Sequence record: MZ043897.1
Length of the DNA: 38,252 nucleotides
Strand: one strand, 5' to 3'
Source of the DNA: Escherichia phage E212
Part shown: one piece after another, positions 4,849 to 24,525 of the stretch
How positions within the stretch are numbered: position 1 is the first letter of the stretch
Layout of the letters: every line of letters starts with the position of its first letter
Notes under the pieces: model-generated
Database searches by the model: none
Told to the model about the DNA's origin: nothing
Seen by the model: only the letters and a program-made list of their open reading frames with translations
Translations under genes and position numbers: made by a program

Positions 4849-5064
4849 ATGAGCAACCTACGAAAATATCGAGAGTCACTGAATATCTCTCAAACAACAC
4901 TTGCTAAGGCAGTTGGATGCACACAGGGAGCTATCGGACATTGGGAATCTGGTCGTCGCTTCCCAGACCTTAAAACATGCCGTGCTCTTGTTGCGTGCCT
5001 AAATAAGTTAGGCGCAAAAGTAAGTCTTGATGACGTGTTCCCGCCGGAACACAAAGCCGCTTAA
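4849..5064 (+). CDS. cro: Cro-like HTH repressor
   Basis: 71-aa ORF divergent from cI; HTH segment ISQTTLAKAVGCTQGAIGHWESG shares its type with the cI N-terminus; RBS GGAGGG. Confidence 0.8.
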   Translation: MSNLRKYRESLNISQTTLAKAVGCTQGAIGHWESGRRFPDLKTCRALVACLNKLGAKVSLDDVFPPEHKAA

Positions 5065-5074
5065 TAAGCGGAGC

Positions 5075-5120
5075 CGCTCTTTGTAACAACGGACATTCGT
5101 CCTACGTCGCTGAAAAGCGA
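5075..5120 (+). promoter_or_regulatory. nutR candidate (boxA-like CGCTCTTTG plus two hairpins, the second with a GAAAA-type loop)
   Basis: CGCUCUUUG-UAACAAC-GGACAUUCGUCC-UACG-UCGCUGAAAAGCGA; parallels the nutL candidate element for element. Confidence 0.45.
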
Positions 5121-5205
5121 GTCCCAAGATATCTGACCAACTAAGGCCATATGCGTTTCCACGCATACCTTTCAACTAACTATTCACTATTGGAAATCTT
5201 AAGAA

Positions 5206-5502
5206 ATGGAACGAACAAGTTACAGCAAACTATCACAGCGTGACGTTGATCGCGCAGAAACAGATTTACTCATCAACCTATCAACGCTTACCCAGCGCGG
5301 TCTGGCAAAGATGATTGGCTGTCATGAATCGAAGATAAGCAGAACGGACTGGAGATTTATTGCTTCGGTCTTGTGTGCTTTCGGAATGGCATCAGACATC
5401 AGTCCGATTAGCAGGGCTTTTAAGTATGCGCTTGATGAAATCACAAAGAAAAAATCCCCGGCCGCCACCGAGGATTTTAAGCAAATTGATATGCAATTCT
5501 GA
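5206..5502 (+). CDS. cII: CII-like transcriptional activator
   Basis: 98-aa ORF; C-terminus KKKSPAATEDFKQIDMQF resembles lambda CII KKRPAATERSEQIQMEF; HTH in the middle. Confidence 0.8.
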   Translation: MERTSYSKLSQRDVDRAETDLLINLSTLTQRGLAKMIGCHESKISRTDWRFIASVLCAFGMASDISPISRAFKYALDEITKKKSPAATEDFKQIDMQF

Positions 5503-6434: not shown

Positions 6435-7132
6435 AAAACATCGCCGCACAGATGGTTAACTTTGACCGTGAGCAGATGCGTCGGATCGCCAACAACATGC
6501 CGGAACAGTACGACGAAAAGCCGCAGGTACAACAGGTAGCGCAGATCATCAATGGTGTGTTCAGCCAGTTACTGGCAACTTTCCCGGCGAGCCTGGCTAA
6601 CCGGGACCAGAACGAACTGAACGAAATCCGCCGCCAGTGGGTGCTGGCTTTCCGGGAAAACGGGATCACCACGATGGAACAGGTTAACGCAGGAATGCGC
6701 GTAGCCCGTCGGCAGAATCGACCATTTCTGCCATCACCCGGGCAGTTTGTTGCATGGTGCCGGGAAGAAGCATCCGTTACCGCCGGACTGCCAAACGTCA
6801 GCGAGCTGGTTGATATGGTTTACGAGTATTGCCGGAAGCGAGGCCTGTATCCGGATGCGGAGTCTTATCCGTGGAAATCAAACGCGCACTACTGGCTGGT
6901 TACCAACCTGTATCAGAACATGCGGGCCAATGCGCTTACTGATGCGGAATTACGCCGTAAGGCCGCAGATGAGCTTGTCCATATGACTGCGAGAATTAAC
7001 CGTGGTGAGGCGATCCCTGAACCAGTAAAACAACTTCCTGTCATGGGCGGTAGACCTCTAAATCGTGCACAGGCTCTGGCGAAGATCGCAGAAATCAAAG
7101 CTAAGTTCGGACTGAAAGGAGCAAGTGTATGA
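6431..7132 (+). CDS. P: Replication protein P (helicase loader, lambda-type)
   Basis: 233-aa ORF matching lambda P along its length; start overlaps the O stop. Confidence 0.95.
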   Translation: MKNIAAQMVNFDREQMRRIANNMPEQYDEKPQVQQVAQIINGVFSQLLATFPASLANRDQNELNEIRRQWVLAFRENGITTMEQVNAGMRVARRQNRPFLPSPGQFVAWCREEASVTAGLPNVSELVDMVYEYCRKRGLYPDAESYPWKSNAHYWLVTNLYQNMRANALTDAELRRKAADELVHMTARINRGEAIPEPVKQLPVMGGRPLNRAQALAKIAEIKAKFGLKGASV

Positions 7133-7419
7133 CGGGCAAAGAGGCAATTATTCATTACCTGGGGACGCATAATAGCTTCTGTGCGCCGGACGTTGCCGCG
7201 CTAACAGGCGCAACAGTAACCAGCATAAATCAGGCCGCGGCTAAAATGGCACGGGCAGGTCTTCTGGTTATCGAAGGTAAGGTCTGGCGAACGGTGTATT
7301 ACCGGTTTGCTACCAGGGAAGAACGGGAAGGAAAGATGAGCACGAACCTGATTTTTAAGGAGTGTCGCCAGAGTGCCGCGATGAAACGGGTATTGGCGGT
7401 ATATGGAGTTAAAAGATGA
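7129..7419 (+). CDS. ren: Ren protein
   Basis: 96-aa ORF matching lambda Ren (MTGKEAIIHYLGTHNSFCAPDVAALTGA...). Confidence 0.85.
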   Translation: MTGKEAIIHYLGTHNSFCAPDVAALTGATVTSINQAAAKMARAGLLVIEGKVWRTVYYRFATREEREGKMSTNLIFKECRQSAAMKRVLAVYGVKR

Positions 7420-7492
7420 CCATCTACATTACTGAGCTAATAACAGGCCTGCTGGTAATCGCAGGCCTTTTTATTTGGGGGAGAGGGAAGTC

Positions 7493-7933
7493 ATGAAAAA
7501 ACTAACCTTTGAAATTCGATCTCCAGCACATCAGCAAAACGCTATTCACGCAGTACAGCAAATCCTTCCAGACCCAACCAAACCAATCGTAGTAACCATT
7601 CAGGAGCGCAACCGCAGCTTAGACCAAAATCGGAAGCTTTGGGCTTGCCTTGGTGACGTTTCGCGTCAGGTTGAATGGCATGGTCGCTGGCTGGATGCAG
7701 AAAGCTGGAAGTGTGTGTTTACCGCAGCATTAAAGCAGCAGGATGTTGTTCCTAACCTTGCCGGGAATGGCTTTGTGGTAATAGGCCAGTCAACCAGCAG
7801 GATGCGTGTAAACGAATTTGCGGAGCTATTAGAGCTTATACAGGCATTCGGTACAGAGCGTGGCGTTAAGTGGTCAGACGAAGCGAGACTGGCTCTGGAG
7901 TGGAAAGCGAGATGGGGAGATCGGGCTGCATGA
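7493..7933 (+). CDS. ninB: NinB (Orf-family recombination protein)
   Basis: Starts MKKLTFEIRSPAHQQNAIHAVQQ..., matching lambda NinB; internal Met of track ORF 7475..7933. Confidence 0.9.
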   Translation: MKKLTFEIRSPAHQQNAIHAVQQILPDPTKPIVVTIQERNRSLDQNRKLWACLGDVSRQVEWHGRWLDAESWKCVFTAALKQQDVVPNLAGNGFVVIGQSTSRMRVNEFAELLELIQAFGTERGVKWSDEARLALEWKARWGDRAA

Positions 7934-8457
7934 CTATCAAATCAAATACGCCAGCACACGACAAGGACTGCTGGCAAACGCCGCTTTGGCTTTTTGATGC
8001 ACTGGATATTGAGTTTGGATTCTGGCTGGATTCGGCAGCGAGCGACAAAAATGCTCTGTGTGCTCACTGGCTAACTGAGGCCGACGACGCGCTCAATTCT
8101 GAGTGGGTAAGCCACGGTGCAATCTGGAATAACCCACCGTACAGCAATATCAGGCCGTGGGTGGAAAAAGCCGCTGAGCAGTGCATACAACAGCGACAGA
8201 CGGTAGTGATGCTTGTGCCAGAGGATATGTCAGTCGGATGGTTCAGCAAGGCTCTGGAGAGTGTCGACGAAGTTCGCATTATCACTGATGGACGGATTAA
8301 TTTTATCGAACCATCGACGGGGCTGGAGAAGAAGGGAAACAGCAAAGGCTCCATGCTGCTGATTTGGCGACCGTTCATCAGTCCTCGACGGATGTTTACT
8401 ACCGTATCCAAAGCGGCATTGATAGCGATCGGGCAGGGCGTCAGGAGGGCGGCATGA
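7930..8457 (+). CDS. Phage DNA N6-adenine methyltransferase (Dam-like)
   Basis: NPPY motif (WNNPPYS) and DKDCWQTP N-terminal motif typical of phage Dam-family methyltransferases; ATGA overlap with the ninB stop. Confidence 0.75.
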
Positions 8458-8630
8458 GGCGACAGCGACGAAGTTTCACCGACATCATCTGCGAAAACTG
8501 CAAATACCTTCCAACGAAACGCTCCAGAAATAAACGCAAGCCAATCCCAAAAGAATCTGACGTAAAAACCTTCAACTACACGGCTCACCTGTGGGATATC
8601 CGGTGGCTAAGACATCGTGCGAGGAAATGA
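8454..8630 (+). CDS. ninE: NinE
   Basis: [52 protein letters not shown] matches lambda NinE; RBS AGGAGGG; ATGA overlap with the Dam stop. Confidence 0.8.
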
Positions 8631-9034
8631 CAATGCTTTTAATTCAACCTGGATTTGGCCTTAGCATCAAAAAAGGACACATGTTTGGCGAGAAAGAGTC
8701 ACAACGAAAAATGGTGTCTATCCGGTTGCCATTTATCAGTATTTATTGGCTAAACAGGGAGGCAACAAATTATTGGTATACATGCGCCAGAGCAGCATTT
8801 AACGACCCTGACTGGTTTGTGAAAAACCACCATGCGGTTCGTCAGGCAAAGAGAAAGGCCAATACGACATACATGAAGGCGTATCGAAAAGCATGGAAAG
8901 AACACCGCGATCGATACCAGCAAGACATGGAAAAGCTTGAATCAGAAAACATGGAATTAAGACGAAAGCTTGGTGAAGCAAAACGAGACATTGATGCTTA
9001 CAAGCGACTTTTTAATGGTGAAAGCCATGCTTAG
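8627..9034 (+). CDS. Hypothetical nin-region protein (135 aa) with C-terminal coiled-coil
   Basis: ORF between ninE and ninF with ATGA overlap at its start; no recognisable family; lambda has no gene at this position. Confidence 0.45.
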
Positions 9035-9203
9035 CCCATCCCAAACCCTTCAATACCAGAAAGAAAGCGTCGAGCGAGCTTTAACGTGCGCTAACTGCGG
9101 TCAGAAGCTGCATGTGCTTGAAGTTCATGTGTGTGAGCACTGCTGCGCAGAACTGATGAGCGATCCGAATAGCTCAATGTACGAGGAAGAAGACGATGAA
9201 TGA
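9027..9203 (+). CDS. ninF: NinF
   Basis: [51 protein letters not shown] matches lambda NinF. Confidence 0.8.
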   Translation: MLSPSQTLQYQKESVERALTCANCGQKLHVLEVHVCEHCCAELMSDPNSSMYEEEDDE

Positions 9204-9918
9204 GTTAATAAATGGCAATGCCATCAAAATGACAAGCATTGAAATCGCTGAGTTGGTGGGTAAGCGTCATGACAATGTGAAACGTACCATCGAAACGCTG
9301 GCTAAAAATGGTGTTATCCGGCTTCCTCAAATTGAGGTTTCCGAAAGAATCAATAACTTAGGGTTCAATGTTCAGTACGAGCATTACGTCTTCGAAGGCG
9401 AACAAGGTAAGCGAGATAGTATTGTTGTTGTTGCCCAGTTGTCGCCAGAGTTCACCGCTCGCCTTGTTGACCGCTGGCGAGAGCTTGAAGAAACTGCGGC
9501 TAATATCCCCAAAACGCTACCAGAAGCGTTGCGCCTTGCTGCTGATCTTGCTGAGCAGAAAATGCAACTGGAAAACCAGCTCGCAATTGCCGCACCTAAA
9601 GTTGAGTTTGCCGATCGCGTTGGCGAGGCCAGCGGAATTTTGATTGGAAACTTTGCAAAGGTTGTTGGAATTGGTCAAAACAAACTGTTTGCGTGGATGC
9701 GCGATCACAAAATCCTTATTGCTTCAGGTTCCCGGCGCAATGTGCCAATGCAGGAATATATGGATCGCGGCTATTTCACAGTGAAAGAAACAGCGGTCAA
9801 TACAAATCACGGAATACAGATATCGTTCACCACAAAAATCACCGGGCGTGGCCAACAGTGGCTGACCAGAAAGCTGCTCGATAACGGAATGCTGAAAGTA
9901 ACAGGGGAGGCTGCTTAA
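9196..9918 (+). CDS. Antirepressor-like protein (Rha-type N-terminus, Ant/KilAC-type C-terminus; Roi-like)
   Basis: 240-aa ORF; N-terminal SIEIAELVGKRHDNVKRTIETL resembles the phage Rha/regulatory N-domain; C-terminal half resembles antirepressor domains; nin-region location as for HK022 Roi. Confidence 0.6.
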   Translation: MNELINGNAIKMTSIEIAELVGKRHDNVKRTIETLAKNGVIRLPQIEVSERINNLGFNVQYEHYVFEGEQGKRDSIVVVAQLSPEFTARLVDRWRELEETAANIPKTLPEALRLAADLAEQKMQLENQLAIAAPKVEFADRVGEASGILIGNFAKVVGIGQNKLFAWMRDHKILIASGSRRNVPMQEYMDRGYFTVKETAVNTNHGIQISFTTKITGRGQQWLTRKLLDNGMLKVTGEAA

Positions 9919-10208
9919 TGGCCAATCTACGCAAAGAAGCACGCGGCAGAGAATGTCAGGTACGTATTTACGGCGTATGCAATGGCAATCCTGAAACTAC
10001 AGTTCTGGCACATTACCGGATGGCTGGAATTTGCGGAACGGGAATGAAGCCTGACGACCTGATCGGCGCATGGGCTTGTAGCGCGTGTCACGATGAAATC
10101 GACCGACGCACCCATAATCTCGACAACAAAGACGCCAGACTTTACCACCTCGAAGGCGTGATCAGGACGCAGGCGATACTGCTGAAGGAGGGGAAGATTA
10201 AGCCATGA
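9918..10208 (+). CDS. YbcO-like (DUF1364) Cys/His-rich nin-region nuclease-like protein
   Basis: 96-aa ORF resembling DLP12 YbcO (RECQVRIYGVCNGNPETTVLAHYR...CSACHDEIDRR). Confidence 0.7.
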   Translation: MANLRKEARGRECQVRIYGVCNGNPETTVLAHYRMAGICGTGMKPDDLIGAWACSACHDEIDRRTHNLDNKDARLYHLEGVIRTQAILLKEGKIKP

Positions 10209-10567
10209 ACGAATATCAGTTTGTGCTTCCTTACCCGCCGTCGGTGAATACCTACTGGCGAAGACGGGGAAGCCAATACTACATCAGCGATAAAGGCCAG
10301 AAATACCGAAAAGACGTTCAGCAAATCATTCGCCAACTCAAGTTAGACATTTTCACCAAATCACGAGTCCGTATCAAAGTCATCGCAGACGTTCCAGACT
10401 CCCGCCGCCGCGACCTCGACAACATCCTGAAAGGTTTACTCGACTCCCTTATCCACGCCGGATTTGCGGAAGACGACGAGCAATTCGATGACATTCGCGT
10501 AATTCGTGGTGTGAAAGTACCAGGCGGAAGGCTTGGAATAAAAATCACCGAACTGGAGAACGTATGA
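10205..10567 (+). CDS. rusA: RusA-family Holliday junction resolvase
   Basis: 120-aa ORF with PYPPSVN...RRRDLDN...DD motifs matching RusA. Confidence 0.85.
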   Translation: MNEYQFVLPYPPSVNTYWRRRGSQYYISDKGQKYRKDVQQIIRQLKLDIFTKSRVRIKVIADVPDSRRRDLDNILKGLLDSLIHAGFAEDDEQFDDIRVIRGVKVPGGRLGIKITELENV

Positions 10568-10752
10568 ACGCCACAATTCAAACGATACCAGAACTTCTTA
10601 TCCAGACACGAGGCAATCAGACCGAAGTGGCGAGGAGGCTTTCCTGTGCAAGAGGAACAGTGCTCAAGTACAACAGAGACAGCAAAGGCGAGCGTCACGC
10701 AATAGTTAACGGCGTCCTGATAGTCAAACAGGGCAAGAGGGGAAGACGATGA
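10564..10752 (+). CDS. ninH: NinH
   Basis: TIPELLIQTRGNQTEVARRLSCARGTVLKY matches lambda NinH. Confidence 0.8.
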   Translation: MNATIQTIPELLIQTRGNQTEVARRLSCARGTVLKYNRDSKGERHAIVNGVLIVKQGKRGRR

Positions 10753-11372
10753 GACTCGAAAGCGTAGCTAAATTTCATTCTCCAAAAAGCCCGATGATGA
10801 GCGACTCACCACGGGCTACAGCTTCTGACTCTCTTTCCGGTACTGATGTGATGGCTGCTATGGGGATGGCGCAATCACAAGCCGGATTCGGTATGGCTGC
10901 ATTCTGCGGTAAGCATGAACTCAGCCAGAACGACAAACAAAAGGCTATCAACTATCTGATGCAATTTGCACACAAGGTATCGGGGAAATACCGTGGTGTG
11001 GCAAAGCTTGAAGGAAATACTAAGGCAAAGGTACTGCAAGTGCTCGCAACATTCGCTTATGCGGATTATTGCCGTAGTGCCGCGACGCCGGGCGCAAGAT
11101 GCAGAGATTGCCACGGTACAGGCCGTGCGGTTGATATATCAAAAACAGAGCTGTGGGGGAGAGTTGTTGAGAAAGAATGCGGAAGATGCAAAGGTGTCGG
11201 CTATTCAAGAATGCCAGCAAGCGCCGCATATCGCGCTGTAACGATGCTAATCCCAAATCTTACCCAACCAACCTGGTCACGCACTGTTAAGCCGCTGTAT
11301 GACGCTCTGGTGGTGCAATGCCACAAAGAAGAGTCAATCGCAGACAACATTTTGAATGCGGTCACACGTTAA
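10749..11372 (+). CDS. Q: Late gene antiterminator Q (lambda-type)
   Basis: 207-aa ORF essentially identical to lambda Q (MRLESVAKFHSPKSPMMSDSPRATASDSLSGTD...). Confidence 0.95.
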   Translation: MRLESVAKFHSPKSPMMSDSPRATASDSLSGTDVMAAMGMAQSQAGFGMAAFCGKHELSQNDKQKAINYLMQFAHKVSGKYRGVAKLEGNTKAKVLQVLATFAYADYCRSAATPGARCRDCHGTGRAVDISKTELWGRVVEKECGRCKGVGYSRMPASAAYRAVTMLIPNLTQPTWSRTVKPLYDALVVQCHKEESIADNILNAVTR

Positions 11373-11414
11373 CAGCATGATTGCCACGGATGGCAACATA
11401 TTAACGGCATAATA

Positions 11415-11443
11415 TTGACTTTTTGAATAAAGTTGGGTAAATT
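11415..11443 (+). promoter_or_regulatory. Late promoter pR' with overlapping qut site
   Basis: TTGACT, 17-bp spacer, TAAATT immediately downstream of Q, as in lambda. Confidence 0.8.
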
Positions 11444-11449
11444 TGACTC

Positions 11450-11642
11450 AACGATGGGTTAATTCGCTCGTTGTGGTAGTGAGATGAAAAGAGGCGGCGC
11501 TTACTACCGATTCCGCCTAGTTGGTCACTTCGACGTATCGTCTGGAACTCCAACCATCGCAGGCAGAGAGGTCTGCAAAATGCAATCCCGAAACAGTTCG
11601 CAGGTAATAGTTAGAGCCTGCATAACGGTTTCGGGATTTTTT
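11450..11642 (+). ncRNA. Short pR'-initiated leader transcript (lambda 6S RNA equivalent) ending at tR'
   Basis: About 190 nt between the pR' start and the tR' hairpin, no ORF, arrangement as in lambda. Confidence 0.55.
11587..11642 (+). terminator. tR' intrinsic terminator
   Basis: CCCGAAAC ... GTTTCGGG long hairpin followed by ATTTTTTAT. Confidence 0.8.
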
Positions 11643-12084
11643 ATATCTGCACAACAGGTAAGAGCATTGAACCCGCAGACCTCGCGGAATTGGTGAAAGG
11701 TGCCGCGCAGTGCTCTTATCGTTGTGGTGAATGCACAGGCTGATGTGTAAGGGCAAGAATCTTTCGCTGGATTCGGTGTGGCCACGTAGCCCGCTGTAGG
11801 CAGTTGCAGCAAACCGGAGATCAGCACCGGTCGCCACAATCCAAACTGAGCCGTAGCCACTGGCTATCCTGAATTCATCAGTGATAGTTACGCTGCGGCC
11901 TTCTACACATGATCTTCGTGAAAGCGGGCGGCATGAGGTTGCGCTAACAACCTCATGCCGTTTTGCCCGTGCATATCGGTCACGAACAAATCTGATTACT
12001 AAACACAGTAGCCTGGATTTGTTCTATCAGTAATCGACCTTATTCCTAATTAAATAGAGCAAATCCCCTTATTGGGGGTAAGAC

Positions 12085-12408
12085 ATGAAGATGCCAGAAA
12101 AACATGACCTGTTAGCCGCCATTCTCGCGGCAAAGGAACAAGGCATCGGGGCAATCCTTGCGTTTGCAATGGCGTACCTTCGCGGCAGATATAATGGCGG
12201 TGCGTTTACAAAAACAGTAATCGACGCAACGATGTGCGCCATTATCGCCTGGTTCATTCGTGACCTTCTCGACTTCGCCGGACTAAGTAGCAATCTCGCT
12301 TATATAACGAGCGTGTTCATCGGCTACATCGGTACTGACTCGATTGGTTCGCTTATCAAACGCTTCGCTGCTAAAAAAGCCGGAGTAGAAGATGGTGGAA
12401 ATCAATAA
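12085..12408 (+). CDS. S: Holin S (lambda-type, dual-start motif MKMPEK)
   Basis: 107-aa ORF matching lambda S107. Confidence 0.95.
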
Positions 12409-12868
12409 TCAACGTAAGGCGTTCCTCGATATGCTGGCGTGGTCAGAGGGAACTGATAACGGACGACAGAAAACCAGAAATCACGGTTATGACGTCATTG
12501 TTGGCGGAGAGCTATTCACTGATTACTCCGATCACCCTCGCAAACTTGTCACGCTAAACCCCAAACTCAAATCAACAGCAGCCGGACGTTACCAGCTTCT
12601 TTCCCGTTGGTGGGATGCTTACCGTAAGCAGCTTGGCCTGAAAGACTTCTCTCCCAAAAGCCAGGACGCTGTTGCGCTGCAGCAGATTAAGGAGCGTGGC
12701 GCTTTACCGATGATTGATCGCGGTGATATTCGTCAGGCAATCGACCGTTGCAGCAATATCTGGGCTTCACTGCCGGGGGCTGGTTATGGTCAGTTCGAGC
12801 ATAAGGCTGACAGCCTGATTGCAAAATTCAAAGAAGCTGGCGGAACGGTCAGAGAGATTGAGGTATGA
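12392..12868 (+). CDS. R: Endolysin R (lytic transglycosylase, lambda-type)
   Basis: 158-aa ORF matching lambda R. Confidence 0.95.
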
Positions 12869-13302
12869 GCAGAGTCACCGCGATTATCTCCGCTCTGGTT
12901 ATCTGCATCATCGTCTGCCTGTCGTGGGCGGTCAATCATTACCGTGATAACGCCATCGCCTATAAAGAGCAGCGCGATAAGGCCACATCCACAATCGCTG
13001 ACATGCAGAAGCGTCAACGTGATGTAGCAGAACTTGACGCCAGATACACAAAGGAGCTTGCTGATGCTAACGCGACTATCGAAAGTCTCCGTGCTGATGT
13101 TTCTGCTGGTCGTAAGCGCCTGCAAGTCGCCGCCATCTGTGCAAAGTCAACGACCGGAGCCAGCAGCATGGGCGATGGAGAAAGCCCAAGACTTACAGCA
13201 GATGCTGAACTCAATTATTACCGTCTCCGAAGTGGAATCGACAGGATAACCGCGCAGGTTAACTACCTGCAGGAGTACATCAGGACGCAATGCCTTCGAT
13301 GA
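12865..13302 (+). CDS. Rz: Rz i-spanin
   Basis: N-terminus [31 protein letters not shown] matches lambda Rz; C-terminal half diverged. Confidence 0.85.
13064..13249 (+). CDS. Rz1: Rz1 o-spanin lipoprotein embedded in the +1 frame of Rz
   Basis: [24 protein letters not shown]... signal peptide with lipobox-like VSAC and Pro-rich mature part, wholly inside Rz. Confidence 0.7.
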
Positions 13303-13475
13303 TAGCGATAATTTTACTCATCATCCTTCACATCTGGCTCTGTAGACAGGGTGATGATCACTTCTGGAGTGAATCCAGATTAAACATCTCATTGCTGATG
13401 CTTGATATTGAGCATCTGGCGCGCGGTAAGGGGCTGCGTTGAGATAAGAGCCAGTCATCAAAAACACCAGGATTT

Positions 13476-13500
13476 AGCCTCGCATTCGCGGGGCTTTTTT
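13476..13500 (+). terminator. Intrinsic terminator candidate downstream of the lysis cassette
   Basis: AGCCTCGC-ATTC-GCGGGGCT hairpin (one G-U pair) followed by TTTTTT. Confidence 0.55.
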
Positions 13501-13646
13501 ACATCTGCAGTAAACAGCGCATCGCAGCGCGTAACAATCCCGAGTCTTTCAGAAAGCTGAGCCTGAGAACTGCCGTATATGGTGGCGACCATCTCGGGGC
13601 GGCTTTTCTGTGCGAACAGGCTCATCTTTCTAAAAGGTAAGACGCT

Positions 13647-14168
13647 ATGAATATCGTTCCACTGAATTACAAAGGCGAACCTATCCGCTTCAATACGGAT
13701 GGCTGGATTAATGCCACTGATATTGCAAAACGTTTCGGGAAGCGTCTGGATCACTGGTTGTCCAACGCTGAAACTCTCGAATACGTTAGAGCTCTGGATG
13801 AGGTTTATTCAGGTGAACCATCGAAAATTCTACATACCCGTGATTCCGGGTATGTAAAAACAAGCAAGGCACGAAAGGACAGGGGAGGCGGAACATGGCT
13901 GCACCCAAAGTTATCAGTTGCCTTTGCAAGATGGTGCGATCCGAAATTCTCCGTATGGTGCGACCTGCACATTGATAGTCTGCTTCGCGGTGAACTGACT
14001 GAGCAGCAGAAATATGAGCAAGCATGTCGCATTCGCGATGACCGGAAATCAAAAGCCAGCAATGGGGCAAGAGAGATGGCTCGCTGGCGATGGGATAAGC
14101 CGGTTATTGAAGCAAATGTCGAGTACTGGCGCGAGCAACTGCAGCTGACTCTCGATATCGCGTGCTGA
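13647..14168 (+). CDS. KilA-N domain protein (moron between lysis and packaging genes)
   Basis: 173-aa ORF; N-terminal GWINATDIAKRFGKRLDHWL ... GTWLHPKLSVAFARWCDPKFSVWCD pattern typical of KilA-N domains. Confidence 0.6.
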   Translation: MNIVPLNYKGEPIRFNTDGWINATDIAKRFGKRLDHWLSNAETLEYVRALDEVYSGEPSKILHTRDSGYVKTSKARKDRGGGTWLHPKLSVAFARWCDPKFSVWCDLHIDSLLRGELTEQQKYEQACRIRDDRKSKASNGAREMARWRWDKPVIEANVEYWREQLQLTLDIAC

Positions 14169-14525
14169 TGGCAAACGCAAAACTGCGTTATCGGAAAAAT
14201 CAAAGCATTACGAGAACTGAGCAACAGCTATCCATTACAAAGCCCATCTACGGGTGGGCTTGATAATGAAACCGGAATTTATTCTGGGAAACCAGTTACG
14301 GCAGTACAGCGAAACAACCCAAGCCAGTAAGTGGGGAAATAACACTGGCAGCCACTGAAAGATGAACCTCCTGCCTTATGGCAAAAAAGATTCTTTGTGG
14401 TGGCGGACTGATGGAAAGACATCGGTTATTGCAGAGACCATTCAATGAGTGGTCTCGACAATGGCTTATACCCTACACGGGATAACTTAACTGATATCCC
14501 TTTTAACGGATAAACGGAGCCAACA

Positions 14526-14768
14526 ATGGCAGAGATTATTCCCATGACTGAAGAACAGAAATTCCAGCTAGAGATTTACAAACTGGTCATGAACCAGAAC
14601 GCAGCCGCAGAAGAAGCATTTCAGTTCATTGGCACTGACGAGCTGAAGCTTGAGCTATTCAAAATTCACTTCCAGTCAGGCGGCGCTAATTCAGATATCA
14701 CGACCCGCACAATCGAAGCGGTGCGTAAATCGAAGGAAGCGTTAGACCTGTTCACTACCGGAGCATAA
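14526..14768 (+). CDS. Hypothetical protein (80 aa) upstream of the small terminase gene
   Basis: ORF in the position P22-like genomes reserve for a small conserved ORF ahead of gene 3. Confidence 0.5.
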   Translation: MAEIIPMTEEQKFQLEIYKLVMNQNAAAEEAFQFIGTDELKLELFKIHFQSGGANSDITTRTIEAVRKSKEALDLFTTGA

Positions 14769-14847
14769 ACATGGCAACTCAAGGTTTCGACAACCCATCC
14801 AAATTCCGCGATGAATGGGATAAGCAAGCAGAAGGGAAATAATCAAT

Positions 14848-15336
14848 ATGGCAGCACCAAAGGGCAACCGATTTTGGGAGGCCCGCAGTAGTCATGGGCG
14901 AAATCCTAAATTCGAATCGCCTGAGGCGCTGTGGGCTGCTTGTTGTGAATACTTCGAGTGGGCTGATGATAACCCGCTATGGGAGGGTAAGGTATTTTCA
15001 TATCAGGGAGAAATAATTAAGGCTAATGTCCCTAAGATGCGAGCCATGACTATTTCAGGATTGTGTACCTTCCTTGATATCACCAGGCAAACATGGGGAA
15101 CCTTCCGGTCAATGGAAGGTTTTTCTGACGTCACATCACGAGCGGAAGACATCATCTACGACCAGAAATTCTCTGGCGCAGCCGCTGACCTTCTCAACGC
15201 TAACATCATCGCCCGTGATTTGGGCCTCAAAGAGCAGTCGCAAGTTGAAGACGTGACACCTGATAAGGGAGATCGCGATAAGCGGCGCTCTCGTATCAAG
15301 GAGCTATTCAACCGTGGAACTGGACGCGATTCTTGA
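14848..15336 (+). CDS. Terminase small subunit (P22 gp3-like)
   Basis: 162-aa [51 protein letters not shown]... closely matches P22 gp3. Confidence 0.85.
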
Positions 15337-16810
15337 TAACTTGAGCGACGAAGAGCAAATCGAATTGCTCGAGCTACTCGAAGAAGAAGAGAACTACCGT
15401 AACACACACCTGCTATATGAATTTACGCCATACAGCAAACAGCGTGAGTTCATCGACGCCGGGCATGACTATCCAGAGCGATGTTTTATGGCTGGTAACC
15501 AGCTTGGTAAGTCATTTACTGGTGCTGCTGAAGTCGCGTTTCACCTTACCGGGCGTTACCCGGGCACAAAAGGCTATCCTGCTGATGGTAAATATGGCGG
15601 TGAGTGGAAAGGTAAGCGTTTCTATGAGCCTGTTGTCTTCTGGATTGGCGGCGAGACAAACGAGACTGTAACCAAAACGACTCAACGCATCCTGTGTGGT
15701 CGTATCGAAGAGAATGATGAGCCAGGCTACGGTTCCATACCTAAAGAAGACATCATTAGCTGGAAGAAGTCTCCTTTCTTTCCGAACCTTGTTGATCATC
15801 TTCTGGTTAAGCATCACACGGCTGATGGCGTTGAAGATGGCATTTCAATCTGCTACTTCAAACCATACTCGCAAGGCCGCGCTCGCTGGCAGGGTGACAC
15901 AATCCACGGCGTGTGGTTTGACGAAGAGCCACCATACAGCATTTATGGCGAAGGTCTTACCCGTACCAACAAATACGGGCAATTCTCAATTCTGACGTTT
16001 ACCCCGCTGATGGGGATGTCTGACGTTGTTACCAAGTTCCTGAAGAATCCCAGCAAGTCGCAGAAAGTGGTCAACATGACCATCTATGACGCTGAGCACT
16101 ACACAGACGAACAGAAAGAGCAAATCATCGCATCCTATCCCGAGCATGAGAGAGAGGCGCGTGCTCGCGGTATTCCTACGATGGGTAGCGGTCGAATCTT
16201 CCAGATACCGGAAGAGACGATTAAGTGTCAGCCGTTCGAGTGTCCTGATCACTTCTACGTCATCAATGCAATGGACTTCGGATGGGATCACCCACAGGCA
16301 CATATCCAGCTTTGGTGGGATAAAGACGAGGACGTGATTTATCTTTCTCGCGTCTGGAAGGCCAAACAGAAGAAGGCGACAGAGGCATGGAGTGCTGTTA
16401 AAGCATGGAGCAAAAACACCCCTACGGCTTGGCCTCATGACGGGCATCAGCACGAAAAGGGAGGCGGCGCTCAGCTCAAGGAACAATACGCCGAAGCTGG
16501 GTTCGACATGTTGCCAGATCATGCAACATGGCCTGATGGAGGTAATGCGGTCGAACCCGGGATAGCAGAGATACGCGACATGATGCTCGACGGTCGTTTC
16601 AAGGTATTTAACACCTGCGAGCCATTCTTTGAAGAGTTTCGTCTGTATCACCGCGATGAGAACGGGAAGATCGTCAAGCTAAATGACGACATCCTTTCTG
16701 CTGTTCGCTATGGCTACATGATGAGGCGTTTTGCAATACAGATGCGAGACATCAAAGATCCTAAAGAGATTGATTACTCAAGCTACAACATACCTTGCGG
16801 AGTTGGATGA
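15314..16810 (+). CDS. Terminase large subunit (P22 gp2-like)
   Basis: 498-aa ORF with Walker A-like GNQLGKS; overlaps the small-subunit 3' end. Confidence 0.9.
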
Positions 16811-19011
16811 TGGCTGATGATAGAAAGATGACTGACTGGCATCGCAAGGTGCTGTGCAACTTTGATAATGCCTGGTCAGCAACGAAGGATATGCGTGAGC
16901 AGATTATTGAGGCTCAACGTTTCGTCCGGGTGTCCGGCGCACAGTGGGAAGGCAGCACAAACGCTGGTTACTCATTTGATGAAGGCAGGTTTGAGCATTA
17001 CCCGCGCTTTGAACTGAATAAGATTGCCCGTGAATGTGATCGCATCATTGGCGAGTATCGACAGAATCGCATCAGCGTTAAATTCAGGCCTAAGGACGAT
17101 AAGGCATCGGAAGCGTTAGCCGAAAAGATGAACGGCAAATTCCGCGCTGACTATCAGGAAACATCCGGTGGCGAAGCGTGTGATAACGCATTTGATGATG
17201 CTGTAACGGGCGGATTCGGTTGTTTCCGCATGTGTGCCGATTACGAAGATGAAATGGATCCGAGTAACGAGCAGCGACGCATCAGCCTTCTTCCTGTTTA
17301 CGACCCAGCGACATGCGTCTTCTTTGATCAGGACAGCAAGCAATATGACCGCTCTGATGCTATGTGGGCTATGGAAATGTTCTCCATGACGCCCAAAGCG
17401 TTCGAGGCTGAATACCCTGATTCCACCGCGGCAAGCCTTTCTCGTGATAACACTGGCACTCAATATGACTGGTCAACGCCAGATGCCATCTATGTTGGAC
17501 GCTACTACGAAGTTCGCATAGAGAAGGTGAAGATCACGGCGTGGCGCAACCCTGTTAGCGGAGAAACGGCAATCTATGATGAAGAGCAAATAAAAGATAT
17601 TGTCGACGAACTGACCGATGGTGCATTCGAACTGATTGGCGAGCGAACGGTGAAGAAGCGCCGCGTTTATTGCGGTCTTCTGTCTGGCGCTGAATGGCTG
17701 GAAGAACCGAAGCGTATTCCGGGCGAACATATTCCTCTCATCCCGGTATATGGGCGTCGCTCATTTGTTGATAATCAGGAGCGAATTGAAGGACACGCAG
17801 CAAAAGCGATGGATGCACAGCGTCTTGAGAACCTGATGGTTTCCATGATTGCAGATAACGCTACTCAGGCTGGCGGTGATGGCATTCCTGTAGTTGATGT
17901 TGACATGATTCCTGGTCCTCTCGCCACTCATTGGGCGGAGCGCAACAAAAAGCGCCCGGCGTTCCTGCCGATGGTCAGTCTGAAAAACAAAAACGGAGAT
18001 ATTACTGCGCAGGCTCAGGTCAGCAGTTATACGCCTCCGACACAAATGCCTCCAGCTCTTGCCGGGCTATTGCAGTACACCGGAACGGCTATTCAGCAAA
18101 TTACAGGTGCGTCGCAGCTTGAGAACATGCCGAGCAACGTCGCTACTGATACCGTTGATAGCATTTTTAACCGGATGGACACGCAGTCCTATATCTACAT
18201 GGACAACATGGCTAAATCTATGCGTCGCGCTGGCGTTGTGTGGCTTTCTATGGCGCGTGAAGTCTATGGCAGCGATACGCCGATGCGTATCGTTAATGAG
18301 GACGGCAGCGATGACGTGGCGCTGATGACTGGTGAAGTGGTTGACCGTCAGACAGGGCAGGTTATCGCGCTTAACGACCTTTCGCAGGGTAACTATGAAG
18401 TGACTGTCGATGTCGGTCAGTCGTTCGCTACTCGCCGTGACGCAACGGTTAAGTCGTTACTTTCCATGCTGGCACTTATCCCACCAGGAACGCCGAAGCA
18501 CGACCTTGTATCGTCGATGATTCTCGACAATATGGACGGCGAAGGGATGGACGACCTGAAAGAATACAACCGCAATCAGTTGCTTCTGTCTGGCGTTATC
18601 AAGCCGAGAACGCCTGAAGAACAGCAGATGGTTGAACAGGCGAAACAACAACAGGCCAGTCAGCCAGATCCGGCTATGGTTGCAGCGCAAGGTCAGCTTC
18701 TTGCTGGTCAGGCTGAATTGCAGAAAGCGCAGAACGAGCAGGCAGCCATTCAGGTTAAAGCATTCCAGGCACAGACGGATGCTCAGGTTGCAGCGGCAAA
18801 TGTTGTGAAAATCCTCGCATCTGCCGATAGCCAGCAAAAATCTGATATCCGTGAGGCGCTGAAACTGCTCGGACAGTTCCAGCAACAGCAAGGAGATAAT
18901 GCCCGTGCTGATGCAGAGCTTGTCCTGAAAAGTCAGGCGCAAGGCCATGCGCAGCGCATGGACATCAGCAGCATCCTGCAAAAATCAACTCAGCAACAAC
19001 CACAGCAGTAA
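16810..19011 (+). CDS. Portal protein (P22 gp1-like)
   Basis: EHIPLIPVYG core and Gln-rich C-terminal helical region (PEEQQMVEQAKQQQASQPDPAMVAAQGQLLAGQAELQKAQNEQ) match the P22 portal; start at the ATG overlapping the terminase stop (track ORF begins at an upstream TTG). Confidence 0.9.
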   Translation: MADDRKMTDWHRKVLCNFDNAWSATKDMREQIIEAQRFVRVSGAQWEGSTNAGYSFDEGRFEHYPRFELNKIARECDRIIGEYRQNRISVKFRPKDDKASEALAEKMNGKFRADYQETSGGEACDNAFDDAVTGGFGCFRMCADYEDEMDPSNEQRRISLLPVYDPATCVFFDQDSKQYDRSDAMWAMEMFSMTPKAFEAEYPDSTAASLSRDNTGTQYDWSTPDAIYVGRYYEVRIEKVKITAWRNPVSGETAIYDEEQIKDIVDELTDGAFELIGERTVKKRRVYCGLLSGAEWLEEPKRIPGEHIPLIPVYGRRSFVDNQERIEGHAAKAMDAQRLENLMVSMIADNATQAGGDGIPVVDVDMIPGPLATHWAERNKKRPAFLPMVSLKNKNGDITAQAQVSSYTPPTQMPPALAGLLQYTGTAIQQITGASQLENMPSNVATDTVDSIFNRMDTQSYIYMDNMAKSMRRAGVVWLSMAREVYGSDTPMRIVNEDGSDDVALMTGEVVDRQTGQVIALNDLSQGNYEVTVDVGQSFATRRDATVKSLLSMLALIPPGTPKHDLVSSMILDNMDGEGMDDLKEYNRNQLLLSGVIKPRTPEEQQMVEQAKQQQASQPDPAMVAAQGQLLAGQAELQKAQNEQAAIQVKAFQAQTDAQVAAANVVKILASADSQQKSDIREALKLLGQFQQQQGDNARADAELVLKSQAQGHAQRMDISSILQKSTQQQPQQ

Positions 19012-19101
19012 TTAACCCATAACGTGCAATGGCTGTCTTTATGAGGCCTGGCACCCTATTGCCTTCCGATGGGCTGAACATCGAGTAAACAGGGGTAACA
19101 A

Positions 19102-19995
19102 ATGGACCAGATGGCAGAAAACACACCAGAAGTTGAAATCGAAACCGACGCGTCAGAGCAGATTCCTGATGATGTCGAACTGGCTGAAGAAGTCGAAACA
19201 GAAGATGGCAGTGAGTCCTCCGGCAATGATGCAGAGGAAGCTACTGAAACTGATGACGACGAATCAGAACAGGAATTCTACTTTGGTGACGAAAAGCTGG
19301 ATTCGCCAACCAGCGAAGATGGCGCAGAGCATGGACTGGTAAAACACCTGCGCAAGACGATTAAAGAGAAAGACCGCGAGCTGAAAGAGCTGATGCGTCA
19401 GTCTCAGAAACCCGTCGAGCAGCAGCCGGTAATCACTCAACCACCGCGAATGCCAAAACTGGATGATGAGGACATCGGTTTCGATGAAGAAATCTACCAG
19501 CAACGCATGGCTAAGTGGGCAGAGGATAACGGCAAGTACCAGCAACAGGAGATGGCTCGCAAGCAGAAGGAGCAGGAGCTTCAGGCTGCCTATCAAGAGC
19601 GATTATCCAAATATCAGCAACGTGTTAAGGCTCTCAAGGTTCCTGGCTATCAGGAAGCAGAACAGGCCGTACTCGAGGAAATCCCCATCGAGACACAAAA
19701 CGCGATCTTGTTTGAGTCAGAGAAGCCGGAAATCGTTGTTCTGGCACTCGGCCGCAACGCTGAACTGCGCAAGCAACTGGCAGAAGCTACCAACCCCGTA
19801 GCAATTGGTCGTCTGCTGGAACGTATCGAATCGAAGGCCAGAATCATGCCAAAAGCAAAAACCACGGCAGCCACAACCCCGACAGTTAAGGGGAGCAACG
19901 GCGCAGTAATCAACAACCTCGACAAATTGAAAGCCAAGGCGCTGGAAACTGGTGACTGGACGCCGTATTTCGCCGCTAAAAAGGCAAAAAAATAA
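19102..19995 (+). CDS. Scaffolding protein (P22 gp8-like)
   Basis: 297-aa acidic, helix-rich ORF between portal and coat genes. Confidence 0.75.
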   Translation: MDQMAENTPEVEIETDASEQIPDDVELAEEVETEDGSESSGNDAEEATETDDDESEQEFYFGDEKLDSPTSEDGAEHGLVKHLRKTIKEKDRELKELMRQSQKPVEQQPVITQPPRMPKLDDEDIGFDEEIYQQRMAKWAEDNGKYQQQEMARKQKEQELQAAYQERLSKYQQRVKALKVPGYQEAEQAVLEEIPIETQNAILFESEKPEIVVLALGRNAELRKQLAEATNPVAIGRLLERIESKARIMPKAKTTAATTPTVKGSNGAVINNLDKLKAKALETGDWTPYFAAKKAKK

Positions 19996-20013
19996 CCTAT
20001 CGGAGCATTAAGC

Positions 20014-21267
20014 ATGGCTAACCAATTAGCAAAAGACCTTGAAATCATGTTCGAAAACTACGTTGAAGGCTTTGAGGCCGCCTGCGTAGTTTCCCGTAAC
20101 GCTAAAAAATTCCGTCCCGGTGATACAGCAATGCAGCGAGCAGGTGATGTTCTGTATCGTCCGCAGCATTACCACATGAACATTGAGGAAGGCCTCGATC
20201 TCAGCAGCAAAACGCCTACAGCACTGGTTCAGCGCCTTGTTCCTTCTGTGTTCAAGGAGCCGAAAAACATTCTGTACACTCTGGATGCGCGTGAAATGCG
20301 TGACCCTGAGCATAAAACTGAAGCTGGTCGCGCCGCAGGTATGCGCCTTGCTGCACAGATTGACTCTGACCTGATTTCCATGGTTACGCAGCGTGCTACT
20401 AACGTGATCACAATGTCTGACTCAACCACAGGTACACAGGGCCGTGATTTGTGGAACTGTGCGGCAGGTATTGATGCCACCATGACGGCGATTGGTGTAC
20501 CGCAGGGTATCAACCGTCGCTCTTTCTGGAACCCCTTCAACTACAAAGACCTTGCTGGCGAGCTTGGTCACCGTGCCTACGCTCAGGGCGCAACCCTGAC
20601 AGCATACGAAAAAGCGCAGATCCCTCCGGTTGCTTCCTTTGATAGCTACAAGACCGATATTTCTGGTCGATTACCGAAAGGAAGCGCTGAATCCTTGACA
20701 GTATCAGGCCAACCTGAACACAAGGTTGAAGCGAAAGATTCAAATGGTATGCCAGTTGATAACCGACAGGGGACTATTACGGTATCTGCATCTGGCTTGC
20801 AGGTTGGTGATGCGTTCACCATTGCCGGTGTGAATTCCGTACACCAGATCACAAAAGATACCACCGGGCAACCGCAGGTATTCCGTGTTCTGGCTGTTAG
20901 CGGAACTACCGTAACAATCTCTCCAAAGATTCTCCCTGTTGAAAATACCGATGTTGCGAGTCGTCCATATGCAAACGTCGATGCCAAACCGGCAGAATCA
21001 GCAGCAATCACCATTCTCAACAAGAACGCAGCACCTGCTAACCTGTTCTGGGCTGATGGTTCTGTTGAGCTGATGTACGGCAAACTAGCGTTCCCGACTG
21101 GTCAGGGTCCACAGGTAATGACAGCAACCACCGAGCAGGGCGCTACGCTGATCATGTCTTACGCCTTCGACCACATCAAAGGCGTAACCACTGCTCGTTT
21201 CACCACTCTGTACGGTTGCTCTGTACTTGTTCCTGAATATACGGGCATCGTTATTGCCGGGCAGTAA
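20014..21267 (+). CDS. Major coat protein (P22 gp5-like fold)
   Basis: 417-aa ORF following the scaffold gene; P22-like gene order. Confidence 0.8.
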   Translation: MANQLAKDLEIMFENYVEGFEAACVVSRNAKKFRPGDTAMQRAGDVLYRPQHYHMNIEEGLDLSSKTPTALVQRLVPSVFKEPKNILYTLDAREMRDPEHKTEAGRAAGMRLAAQIDSDLISMVTQRATNVITMSDSTTGTQGRDLWNCAAGIDATMTAIGVPQGINRRSFWNPFNYKDLAGELGHRAYAQGATLTAYEKAQIPPVASFDSYKTDISGRLPKGSAESLTVSGQPEHKVEAKDSNGMPVDNRQGTITVSASGLQVGDAFTIAGVNSVHQITKDTTGQPQVFRVLAVSGTTVTISPKILPVENTDVASRPYANVDAKPAESAAITILNKNAAPANLFWADGSVELMYGKLAFPTGQGPQVMTATTEQGATLIMSYAFDHIKGVTTARFTTLYGCSVLVPEYTGIVIAGQ

Positions 21268-21308
21268 TTTTGGTGGGGCTTCGGCCCCATTTTTATTGGG
21301 AGAAGACA

Positions 21309-21497
21309 ATGGCACGAACAATGCTCTATAAGCCTGGCAACATGATCACCTGTGGTCAGTTTGCTGTCGATTACATCATTGTTGATGACGAAGAAGTTAA
21401 ATCTCACCTGAAAAAAGGTTGGGTAAAAACTCCTGAAGAAACCGCAACGAAGCAAAAAGTGGCTAAGGCGGAAGAAGATGGCGAAAACGAAGGGTGA
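21309..21497 (+). CDS. Hypothetical small protein (62 aa) between coat and gp4 genes
   Basis: Internal Met of track ORF 21270..21497 with RBS GGGAGAAG; overlaps the gp4-like start by 20 nt. Confidence 0.4.
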   Translation: MARTMLYKPGNMITCGQFAVDYIIVDDEEVKSHLKKGWVKTPEETATKQKVAKAEEDGENEG

Positions 21498-21939
21498 TCT
21501 CGTTCTAAAGGCTTTACGAAAAGCCGGGCTGTATTCCAATGCCACGTTGACAGATGCCGACCCTCAGGCAATTGAAGATGCCATTAATGACCTTGAAGAC
21601 ATGATGGCAGCATGGCAGGCGAAAGGTATCGAGCTTGGATATCAGTTTGCGGATACAGAAAACGGCATCATGCCGTTACCTGACGATGATTCAGGTATCC
21701 CTGCATGGGCAAATGATGGCGTCGCTTTGAAGCTCGCTGTGCAAGTGTGCATGGATAACGTCATTCAGCCGTCGGATGCTCTCCTGACCGCTGCTGACAG
21801 TGCATATCAGACAATCTGTATCGCTTTAACCAAAATACCACCACTTGAGCGACGAAATGACATGCCTCGCGGTAGTGGTAACAAAAGCGCGTTTACGTGG
21901 AATCGGTTTTACATCGAGAAAGATGATCCGAGTACGTGA
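21478..21939 (+). CDS. Head completion / tail accessory factor (P22 gp4-like)
   Basis: N-terminus KTKGDLVLKALRKAGLYSNATLTDADPQAIEDAINDLEDMMAAW resembles P22 gp4. Confidence 0.75.
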   Translation: MAKTKGDLVLKALRKAGLYSNATLTDADPQAIEDAINDLEDMMAAWQAKGIELGYQFADTENGIMPLPDDDSGIPAWANDGVALKLAVQVCMDNVIQPSDALLTAADSAYQTICIALTKIPPLERRNDMPRGSGNKSAFTWNRFYIEKDDPST

Positions 21940-21948
21940 GGTGAATAA

Positions 21949-23367
21949 ATGCCGATTCAGCAACTTCCGCTTATGAAAGGTGTCGGCAAAGACTTCCGAA
22001 ATGCCGACTATATCGACTATCTGCCAGTGAATATGCTGGCTACACCCAAAGAAATCCTGAACAGCAGCGGATATCTTCGCTCATTCCCGGGCATTGCAAA
22101 ACGTTCTGATGTGAACGGTATATCGCGCGGCGTCGAGTACAACATGGCGCAGAATGCTGTTTATCGCGTGTGTGGTGGAAAGCTCTACAAAGGCGAAAGC
22201 GAAGTCGGTGATGTTGCCGGAAGTGGTCGTGTATCAATGGCGCATGGTCTGACATCTCAGGCTGTAGGCGTTAATGGTCAACTGGTCGAGTATCGCTATG
22301 ATGGCACGGTTAAAACCGTCTCAAACTGGCCTGCGGACAGCGGATTCACGCAGTATGAGTTAGGTTCAGTTCGCGACATTACGCGCTTACGTGGGCGTTA
22401 TGCGTGGTCAAAAGACGGAACTGATTCATGGTTTATCACTGACCTTGAAGACGAATCACATCCTGACCGTTACAGCGCACAATATCGCGCAGAATCGCAG
22501 CCGGACGGTATCATCGGCATCGGAACATGGCGAGACTTCATCGTCTGCTTTGGTTCATCGACGATTGAATATTTCTCCCTGACGGGCGCAACCACTGTTG
22601 GTGCCGCTTTATATGTCGCACAGCCATCGCTGATGGTGCAAAAAGGCATCGCCGGAACTTACTGCAAAACGCCGTTTGCTGATTCCTATGCGTTTATCAG
22701 CAATCCGGCAACAGGTGCGCCGTCTGTGTATATCATCGGCTCCGGTCAGGTATCACCAATCGCCAGCGCGAGCATTGAGAAAATACTACGCTCCTACACT
22801 GCTGATGAACTGGCTGATGGCGTGATGGAATCGCTGCGGTTTGATGCGCATGAGTTGCTGATTATCCATCTTCCGCGCCATGTACTCGTGTACGACGCAT
22901 CTTCAAGCGCCAATGGTCCGCAATGGTGTGTGCTGAAAACAGGCCTGTATGACGATGTGTACCGCGCTATCGATTTCATTTACGAAGGCAATCAGATAAC
23001 GTGCGGCGATAAGCTGGAGTCCGTGACCGGGAAATTGCAGTTCGATATCAGCAGCCAGTACGACAAGCAACAGGAACACCTTCTGTTTACTCCGTTGTTC
23101 AAAGCGGATAACGCCAGAGTTTTCGACCTTGAAGTTGAATCGTCAACTGGCGTTGCGCAGTACGCCGACCGCCTTTTTCTCTCTGCAACCACTGACGGCA
23201 TCAATTACGGACGTGAGCAGATGATTGAGCAGAATGAACCGTTCGTTTACGACAAACGCGTTTTGTGGAAGCGAGTTGGGCGCATCAGGAAAAATGTCGG
23301 CTTCAAATTGCGCGTTATTACGAAGTCACCAGTCACTCTGTCTGGCTGCCAGATAAGGATTGAGTAA
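21949..23367 (+). CDS. Tail accessory factor (P22 gp10-like)
   Basis: 472-aa ORF near-identical to P22 gp10 along its length. Confidence 0.9.
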
Positions 23368-24523: not shown

Positions 24524-24525
24524 CC

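Follow-up and report, generated by a model that had tools for sequence, protein, structure and literature searches.

The DNA analyzed here (the window) is a 38,252-nt stretch from Escherichia phage E212 (MZ043897.1), and all positions are given in window coordinates. The window appears to hold the genome of a P22-like (Lederbergvirus-type) coliphage, complete or nearly so, and is related to EC.P3, CUS-3, and Kapi1; positions 9507 to 25000 are 100% identical to Escherichia phage EC.P3, and the early region shows mosaicism with CUS-3, Kapi1, Dewey, and Louie. The genes surrounding the ORF under study lie on one strand in the order O, P, a ren-like ORF, a hairpin (7445 to 7468), NinB, Dam, NinE, the ORF, NinF, a Roi-like gene, YbcO, RusA, NinH, and Q. 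Most neighboring genes have overlapping stop and start codons (ATGA or ATGCTTAG), a packing typical of the nin region (PMC8022706). By position, the ORF belongs to such a region: it is located between O/P/ren and Q, is encoded on the same strand, and is tightly packed against its neighbors. A family member with only 21% identity likewise is found between the replication genes and Q. The features at the locus are as follows.

8454 to 8630, plus strand: ninE, 58 aa (PF05322 NinE, E 1.3e-42), with an ATGA overlap with the Dam stop codon at 8454 to 8457
8621 to 8625, plus strand: Shine-Dalgarno-like GAGGA in the end of ninE, read from the sequence; GAGGAAATGACAATG is likewise found ahead of P22 ninX and of the homologue in HK630
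8627 to 8635, plus strand: left mosaic junction ATGACAATG, spanning the ninE stop and the two possible start codons, from the DNA alignment of the window, P22, and HK630
8633 to 9034, plus strand: orphan nin-region coding sequence, 133 aa plus TAG (135 aa if counted from 8627), from the PHROG_1511 match, conservation, and dN/dS
9027 to 9034, plus strand: right mosaic junction ATGCTTAG, containing the ninF start codon and the TAG of the ORF, from the DNA alignment with P22
9027 to 9203, plus strand: ninF, 58 aa (PF05810, E 1.8e-12; phrog_672, E 1.7e-37)

The initial annotation had described a 135-aa ORF between ninE and ninF that is coupled to ninE by an ATGA and ends just past the ninF start. 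These coordinates were all confirmed, and the Pfam matches listed above bear out the identity of both flanking genes. On the plus strand, the frame runs from an ATG at 8627 to 8629 to a TAG at 9032 to 9034 (135 codons plus stop). The ATG overlaps the ninE stop codon (TGA, 8628 to 8630), and at the other end the ninF ATG at 9027 creates an 8-nt overlap with the end of the ORF. Further inspection of the frame revealed a second in-frame ATG at 8633, from which a protein of 133 aa would be made. Although the frame stands as it was first given, its start probably does not, and judging from the sequence we consider ATG 8633 to be the likelier start codon. This preference is based on three observations: the GAGGA lies 7 to 8 nt before ATG 8633 but only 1 to 2 nt before ATG 8627; PHROG_1511 aligns to residues 3 to 135 (numbered from 8627), covering profile positions 1 to 133 of 133; and homologues in the databases, including members that are only 20 to 25% identical, are about 133 aa long and start with MLLIQ or MIIIQ, i.e., M-[ILV]-[ILV]-[ILV]. 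Protein residues are numbered from ATG 8633 throughout. The ORF is closely coupled to ninE with either start, and the ATGA overlap is consistent with the translational coupling first proposed; given this position, translation of the ORF would be coupled to that of ninE and would most likely begin at ATG 8633.

Between the ren-like ORF (7129 to 7419) and ninB (7475 to 7933), the plus strand contains a GC-rich hairpin with a T-run after it (AGGCCTGC...GCAGGCCT TTTTATTT; 7445 to 7468). This is where tR2 lies in lambda, and the genes downstream of it, including the ORF, should therefore need N antitermination. No promoter-like site was found on the plus strand between 7000 and 11400. From its position downstream of the tR2-like hairpin, the ORF would be transcribed as a delayed-early gene of the N-antiterminated pR (early-right) operon.

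Several neighbors are of note in their own right. The ren-like ORF, which follows gene P on the plus strand and encodes 96 aa, has no Pfam match at an E value of ≤1e-3 and sits where H-19B annotates ren. Between ninB and ninE, the plus strand encodes a Dam-family N6-adenine methyltransferase (7930 to 8457; PF05869, E 2e-64), with ATGA-type overlaps at about 7930 to 7933 and at 8454 to 8457. Homologues of the ORF are found near a Dam gene also in a Flyfo siphovirus, in PY54, and in a metagenomic contig (L008); the association is not obligatory, as HK630 and Salmonella phages carry the ORF without it. Between ninF and YbcO/RusA, the plus strand encodes a 240-aa antirepressor-like protein with Rha and KilAC domains (9196 to 9918; PF09669 and PF03374; phrog_63), the H-19B counterpart of which is annotated as Roi (similar to HK022 Roi). 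This Roi-like gene is another optional cassette of the nin region.

The initial annotation stated that lambda has no gene at the position of the ORF. This is correct: a GTGA overlap joins lambda ninE directly to ninF, with no gene between them, and homology between lambda and the window stops at GCGAGGAAA and resumes inside ninF. The slot is not, however, empty in all lambdoid phages. In P22 it is occupied by ninX, at exactly the same junctions. The DNA of the window, HK630, and P22 is identical through the GAGGAAATGACAATG at the end of ninE; the window and HK630 then part from P22, identity with P22 ending directly after the left junction (8627 to 8635), and all three converge exactly at ATGCTTAGCCC, the start of ninF. 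The alignments show a self-contained mosaic cassette that is exchanged at the ninE/ninF junction.

NinX (PF10765) resembles the ORF product in occupying the slot between ninE and ninF, in having identical flanking junctions (GAGGAAATGACAATG and ATGCTTAGCCC) and the same translational coupling, in its similar length (112 aa versus 133 aa), and in lacking an assigned function. It differs in being much commoner, with 653 phage records, Vibrio phages included, compared with 57 for the ORF; in the same collection, NinE is found in 425 records and NinF in 220. We considered whether the two proteins are homologous and rejected this idea: BLASTP returned no alignment between them, hhalign gave a probability of 0.25%, and PF10765 matches P22 NinX (E 4e-31) and has no match in the ORF product. 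These comparisons indicate that the ORF and ninX are alternative, unrelated cassettes for one slot defined by recombination.

The nin gene pool comprises 30 to 50 nonessential, tightly packed genes, about 10 of which are found in each phage (PMC5630979, PMC8022706). These genes are dispensable in the laboratory (PMC8022706, PMC5630979, PMC10695390, the last of which contains CRISPRi data for lambda). Several of their products act on DNA, NinB as a recombination mediator and NinG and RusA as nucleases that cut junctions (PMC8022706). NinB/Orf, NinG/Rap, RusA, NinH, NinE, and NinF share with the ORF an operon, ATGA-type packing, mosaic inheritance, and laboratory dispensability (the last by extension in the case of the ORF), but none is homologous to it. 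Given that lambda and P22 are without the gene, that frameshifted copies occur, and that nin genes generally are nonessential, the ORF would be expected to be dispensable for plaque formation, and we infer that it is one of the nonessential accessory genes that make up the nin pool of lambdoid phages.

The ORF product gave a full-length match to PHROG_1511, a family of unknown function (E 1.6e-86, 288 bits). The protein is found in 57 phage records, which include lambdoid and Stx phages of E. coli, P22-like phages of Salmonella, and Yersinia phage PY54, and the DNA is found in 52 phage records at 80 to 100% identity. Many Shiga-toxin-converting phages carry it. Homologues also are present in prophages of Klebsiella, Citrobacter, and Salmonella, and 392 of 5,426 complete E. 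coli genomes (about 7%) are carriers. The PHROG_1511 homologues in VT1-Sakai (H0039), HK630 (HK630_055), HK629, mEpX2, the Stx1 and Stx2 phages, and PY54 (ORF53) represent the same gene, the window protein having identities of 97 to 100% to the E. coli phage copies, 83 to 87% to those of the Salmonella P22-like phages, and 47% to that of PY54. The gene thus is already catalogued, as a hypothetical protein, in VT1-Sakai, HK629, HK630, mEpX2, and hundreds of E. coli genomes. A scan of genome contigs returned two loci only, and when 1.8 billion cluster representatives were searched exhaustively by HMM, only 59 relatives were returned, all of about 125 to 140 aa and of the same architecture and none of them annotated.

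The initial annotation regarded the ORF as expressed rather than spurious and proposed that occurrence in other lambdoid nin regions and conservation of the frame should be examined. The gene was found in other nin regions, e.g., that of HK630, and in phages and prophages of E. coli, Salmonella, Klebsiella, Citrobacter, and Yersinia its frame has stayed whole and is subject to purifying selection. Pairwise Nei-Gojobori comparisons with HK630, with Salmonella SI8 and SE10, and with CMS-2020a gave dN/dS values of 0.06 to 0.16 at dS values of 0.65 to 2.2, and both halves of the protein behaved alike. PY54, with its saturated synonymous sites, also has an open frame, as do relatives of about 20% identity detected by HMM. 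Within the ORF there is no Rfam family and there are no notable repeats, palindromes, hairpins, promoters, or terminators. That the ORF is spurious, or is DNA kept for a noncoding reason (a terminator, an RNA, or a recombination linker), has nothing in its favor beyond the fact that neither lambda nor the old H-19B annotation has the gene, and against the low dN/dS at saturated synonymous sites, the open frame in distant relatives, the lack of noncoding signals, and the confident AlphaFold2 (AF2) fold described below, its probability is negligible; the selection analysis rules it out. On the strength of these comparisons, we are highly confident that the ORF is a genuine cassette gene, allelic to ninX and maintained under strong purifying selection.

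A few copies are frameshifted or chimeric. By tblastn, the ORF is split into two pieces by a frameshift in H-19B (L004, AF034975; 3001 to 3406), AU5Stx1, P0061, and P0078, and this probably explains why it is missing from the annotation of the classic H-19B nin-region record. In one chimera (P0074), the N terminus of a CII-family protein is joined to half of the ORF (97% identity), and in another (P0087), N-terminal motifs of a C5 cytosine methyltransferase are joined to the zipper of a PY54-type homologue. Both chimeras probably are products of deletion or recombination in defective prophages or are assembly artifacts. Occasional broken copies are expected for a dispensable prophage gene.

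The structure of the ORF product was predicted with AF2 from a 49-sequence alignment (model m502ec5a5c37d; mean pLDDT, 87). The model contains strands at residues 2 to 6, 11 to 16, 26 to 31, and 35 to 40, a helix at 42 to 56, a short helix at 59 to 65, and a long helix at 67 to 132 (pLDDT, 94 to 98). It is a monomer model with a pTM of 0.45, so the orientation of the N-terminal domain relative to the long helix is not fixed. Three regions were distinguished.

8633 to 8830, plus strand: N-terminal globular beta/alpha domain, residues 1 to 66 (AF2 pLDDT of about 80 to 87), with a turn/helix D-P-x-W-x-x-x-N at 58 to 65
8831 to 8893, plus strand: basic helix, residues 67 to 87, from column statistics, a charge table, and the continuous AF2 helix
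8894 to 9013, plus strand: leucine zipper, residues 88 to 127, from heptads over 38 nonredundant members (AF2 pLDDT of 94 to 98)

The initial annotation labeled the whole product a coiled coil. The label is appropriate for the C-terminal half, with its single long helix and regular a/d heptads, but the N-terminal half forms a small domain of beta/alpha type. G19, D58, W61, and N65 are conserved in at least 90% of members, and the last three lie in the D-P-x-W-x-x-x-N motif. The N-terminal domain has no Pfam match, and a profile search of the PDB with this domain alone gave nothing below an E value of 0.1. In the basic helix, R70, K73 to K75, K79, and R81 are conserved, as is an Ala face at 72/76/80, in a stretch of the form V69-R-x-A-K-K-K-A-x-x-K-A-R. 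The net charge of residues 67 to 87 is +7 in the window protein, and the family median is +5. The pI is about 9.9 for the window product and has a family median of 9.6, with the charge concentrated in residues 67 to 87 and a neutral zipper. The zipper comprises 5 to 6 heptads with a positions at 92/99/106/113/120 and d positions, which mostly are Leu, at 88/95/102/109/116/123. It contains the motif E105-N106-x-x-L109-R110 (g-a-..-d-e), which places an Asn at an a position. E-N-x-x-L-R is present in about two-thirds of members, at 105 to 110 in the clade of the window protein and one heptad later in distant members, so that the Asn is at a-106 or a-113. By the general rules for coiled coils, an a-position Asn flanked by Glu at g and Arg at e favors an in-register parallel dimer. 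From the model and the conservation in the family, the ORF product probably is a small basic leucine-zipper dimer.

Homology and structure searches gave no annotated family, in agreement with the first reading, in which no function was assigned. Scans of the ORF product and 49 family members against Pfam, NCBIfam, and PADLOC returned only subthreshold coiled-coil noise; among the PADLOC-DB defense models and curated NCBIfam entries, nothing was significant (best E value, 7e-4 or weaker, far below the cutoffs). Profile searches of the PDB with the whole family gave nothing below an E value of 0.1. Literature searches found no study of the ORF. We considered and rejected a conserved partner gene, as the neighbors of distant homologues share no similarity. 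One of these homologues (P0092, about 25% identical) is encoded at 5001 to 5402 of a 400-kb metagenomic contig (L019, ENA ERZ27315289) among small ORFs, with CYTH-domain and Cpn10/GroES genes nearby; the contig possibly represents a phage of very large size or a prophage-bearing chromosome.

Some UniProt and NCBI records of the family carry the automatic name BZIP domain-containing protein, and the ORF product was compared with eukaryotic bZIP proteins (GCN4, C/EBP, and Jun/Fos). Like these, it has a basic helix that continues into a five-heptad Leu zipper with an a-position Asn and g/e charges, all within the single long AF2 helix, and a parallel dimer is predicted. When the C-terminal half was scanned in isolation, bZIP_1 (PF00170) aligned in register over positions 7 to 60 of 64 with an E value of 0.049, at 14.2 bits versus a gathering threshold of 27.6, and bZIP_2 (PF07716) scored 11.0 bits versus a threshold of 22.3. 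The subthreshold bZIP_1 match is confined to the E. coli subclade; no bZIP match was found in seven other family members or in the full-length scans, and other coiled-coil families score as well as or better than bZIP_1. C/EBP chains are among the weak PDB matches. In hhalign comparisons with six bZIP domains, which serve as supporting evidence only, the zipper alone aligned (residues 89 to 124; probability, 80%), Asn on Asn, and the basic region was left unaligned. The window protein has an N77-x7-R85 pair 10 residues before a d position, as in GCN4. Neither residue is conserved, position 77 being mostly E/K/T and position 85 mostly E/R/K across 38 nonredundant members, and, as read from the sequence, the PROSITE-style bZIP basic signature fails at Y80 and M81. 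The ORF product differs further from bZIP proteins in its extra N-terminal domain and its phage origin.

With respect to function, we tentatively favor a model in which the ORF product is a zipper homodimer that binds nucleic acid via its basic helices, a reading drawn from the structural model, family conservation, charge distribution, and geometry. The zipper would form an in-register parallel homodimer; the two basic helices emerging from it would grip nucleic acid with a bZIP-like geometry; the N-terminal domains would cap the complex and either add specificity or bind a second ligand; and the protein would modulate a DNA transaction in lytic growth, as its nin neighbors NinB, RusA/NinG, and NinH do. 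The long helix predicted at a pLDDT of >90, the conservation of the heptads and basic patch over 38 members, and the high median pI with its charge in residues 67 to 87 are consistent with this proposal, as is the resemblance of the zipper to bZIP (the Asn-on-Asn alignment, the subthreshold bZIP_1 match, the weak C/EBP matches, and the automatic names). Against it, the family shows no significant homology to DNA binders, the bZIP_1 score is about half of its threshold and limited to one subclade, the basic region did not align in hhalign, and the N77-x7-R85 pair is not kept. Moreover, 13 of 49 members have a charge of less than +3 in the basic segment, and many proteins that do not bind DNA also have a basic helix and a coiled coil. 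The window protein also has two repulsive g-e' pairs (D98/E103 and K112/K117), which make homodimerization less than certain. The vicinity of the gene yielded no candidate palindromic target site.

The main rival to the nucleic-acid-binding dimer is that the ORF product is a protein-binding accessory factor in host takeover or antidefense. The zipper then would serve only to dimerize, and the N-terminal domain, with or without the basic helix, would bind a host protein rather than nucleic acid; the target would be a component of a defense system or a replication or recombination factor that is inhibited or redirected. The best-conserved residues (G19, D58, W61, and N65) belong to the N-terminal domain and not to the basic helix, which argues for this reading. 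Also in its favor are the sporadic, cassette-like distribution of the gene (57/425 NinE-bearing phage records) and its exchangeability with the unrelated NinX or with nothing, the occurrence of distant homologues without a conserved neighbor in arrays of small early genes of no assigned function, and the laboratory dispensability of nin genes (PMC5630979, PMC10695390). On the other hand, the PADLOC matches are coiled-coil noise only, no partner is known, and a pI that is high throughout the family, together with an Ala-faced basic patch adjoining the zipper, would be more usual in a protein that binds nucleic acid. We regard a protein-binding role as possible, if rather unlikely.

A cytoskeletal, division, or membrane coiled coil of the GpsB/DivIVA/ZapB or spanin type, which would perturb host division or the envelope, is suggested by weak matches to GpsB, DivIVA, YabA, and LysB-type coiled coils. 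All of these are subthreshold and reflect generic coiled coil only, the sequence has no signal peptide, lipobox, or transmembrane segment, and the gene is found in an early operon and not in a lysis cassette. Such a role is very improbable. Still less credible is that the protein regulates promoters of the phage or host as a true bZIP family member, whether gained by horizontal transfer or related through ancient descent. The automatic names, the in-register bZIP_1 alignment, the C/EBP chains among the weak PDB matches, and the GCN4-like spacing of N77 and R85 speak for membership. Against it, the score reaches only half of the Pfam gathering threshold, coiled-coil families equal or exceed it, members outside the E. 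coli clade have no bZIP match, N77 and R85 are variable, hhalign covers the zipper only, and the basic signature is broken at Y80 and M81. In addition, bZIP domains do not have a structured beta/alpha domain directly N-terminal to the basic region. We therefore rejected true bZIP membership, and the likeness is an analogy at most. By this analogy, the ORF product may work like a bZIP protein, yet it is not one. A more specific version of the nucleic-acid-binding dimer, in which the protein would be a phage-born bZIP analogue whose parallel Asn zipper sets two basic helices on DNA beneath a cap formed by a previously undescribed beta/alpha domain, appears rather unlikely.

Taken as a whole, the analysis supports the first reading of the ORF, although what was read is an ordinary orphan gene, one that already has been catalogued. 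What is added to the existing annotation is a corrected start codon, a demonstration that selection on the gene is purifying, its precise status as an allele of ninX, and the structural hypothesis of a basic leucine-zipper dimer with a novel N-terminal domain. The ORF is one of many uncharacterized passengers of the nin region, and knowledge of its function would contribute modestly to an understanding of the early lytic phase in prophages of medical relevance. If the bZIP-like reading is true, a basic-helix/leucine-zipper DNA binder and a new small fold would have arisen outside eukaryotes. A bZIP analogue of this kind would represent a new class of small DNA-binding or regulatory proteins of prokaryotic viruses that act in lambdoid lytic development, including that of the Shiga-toxin phages.
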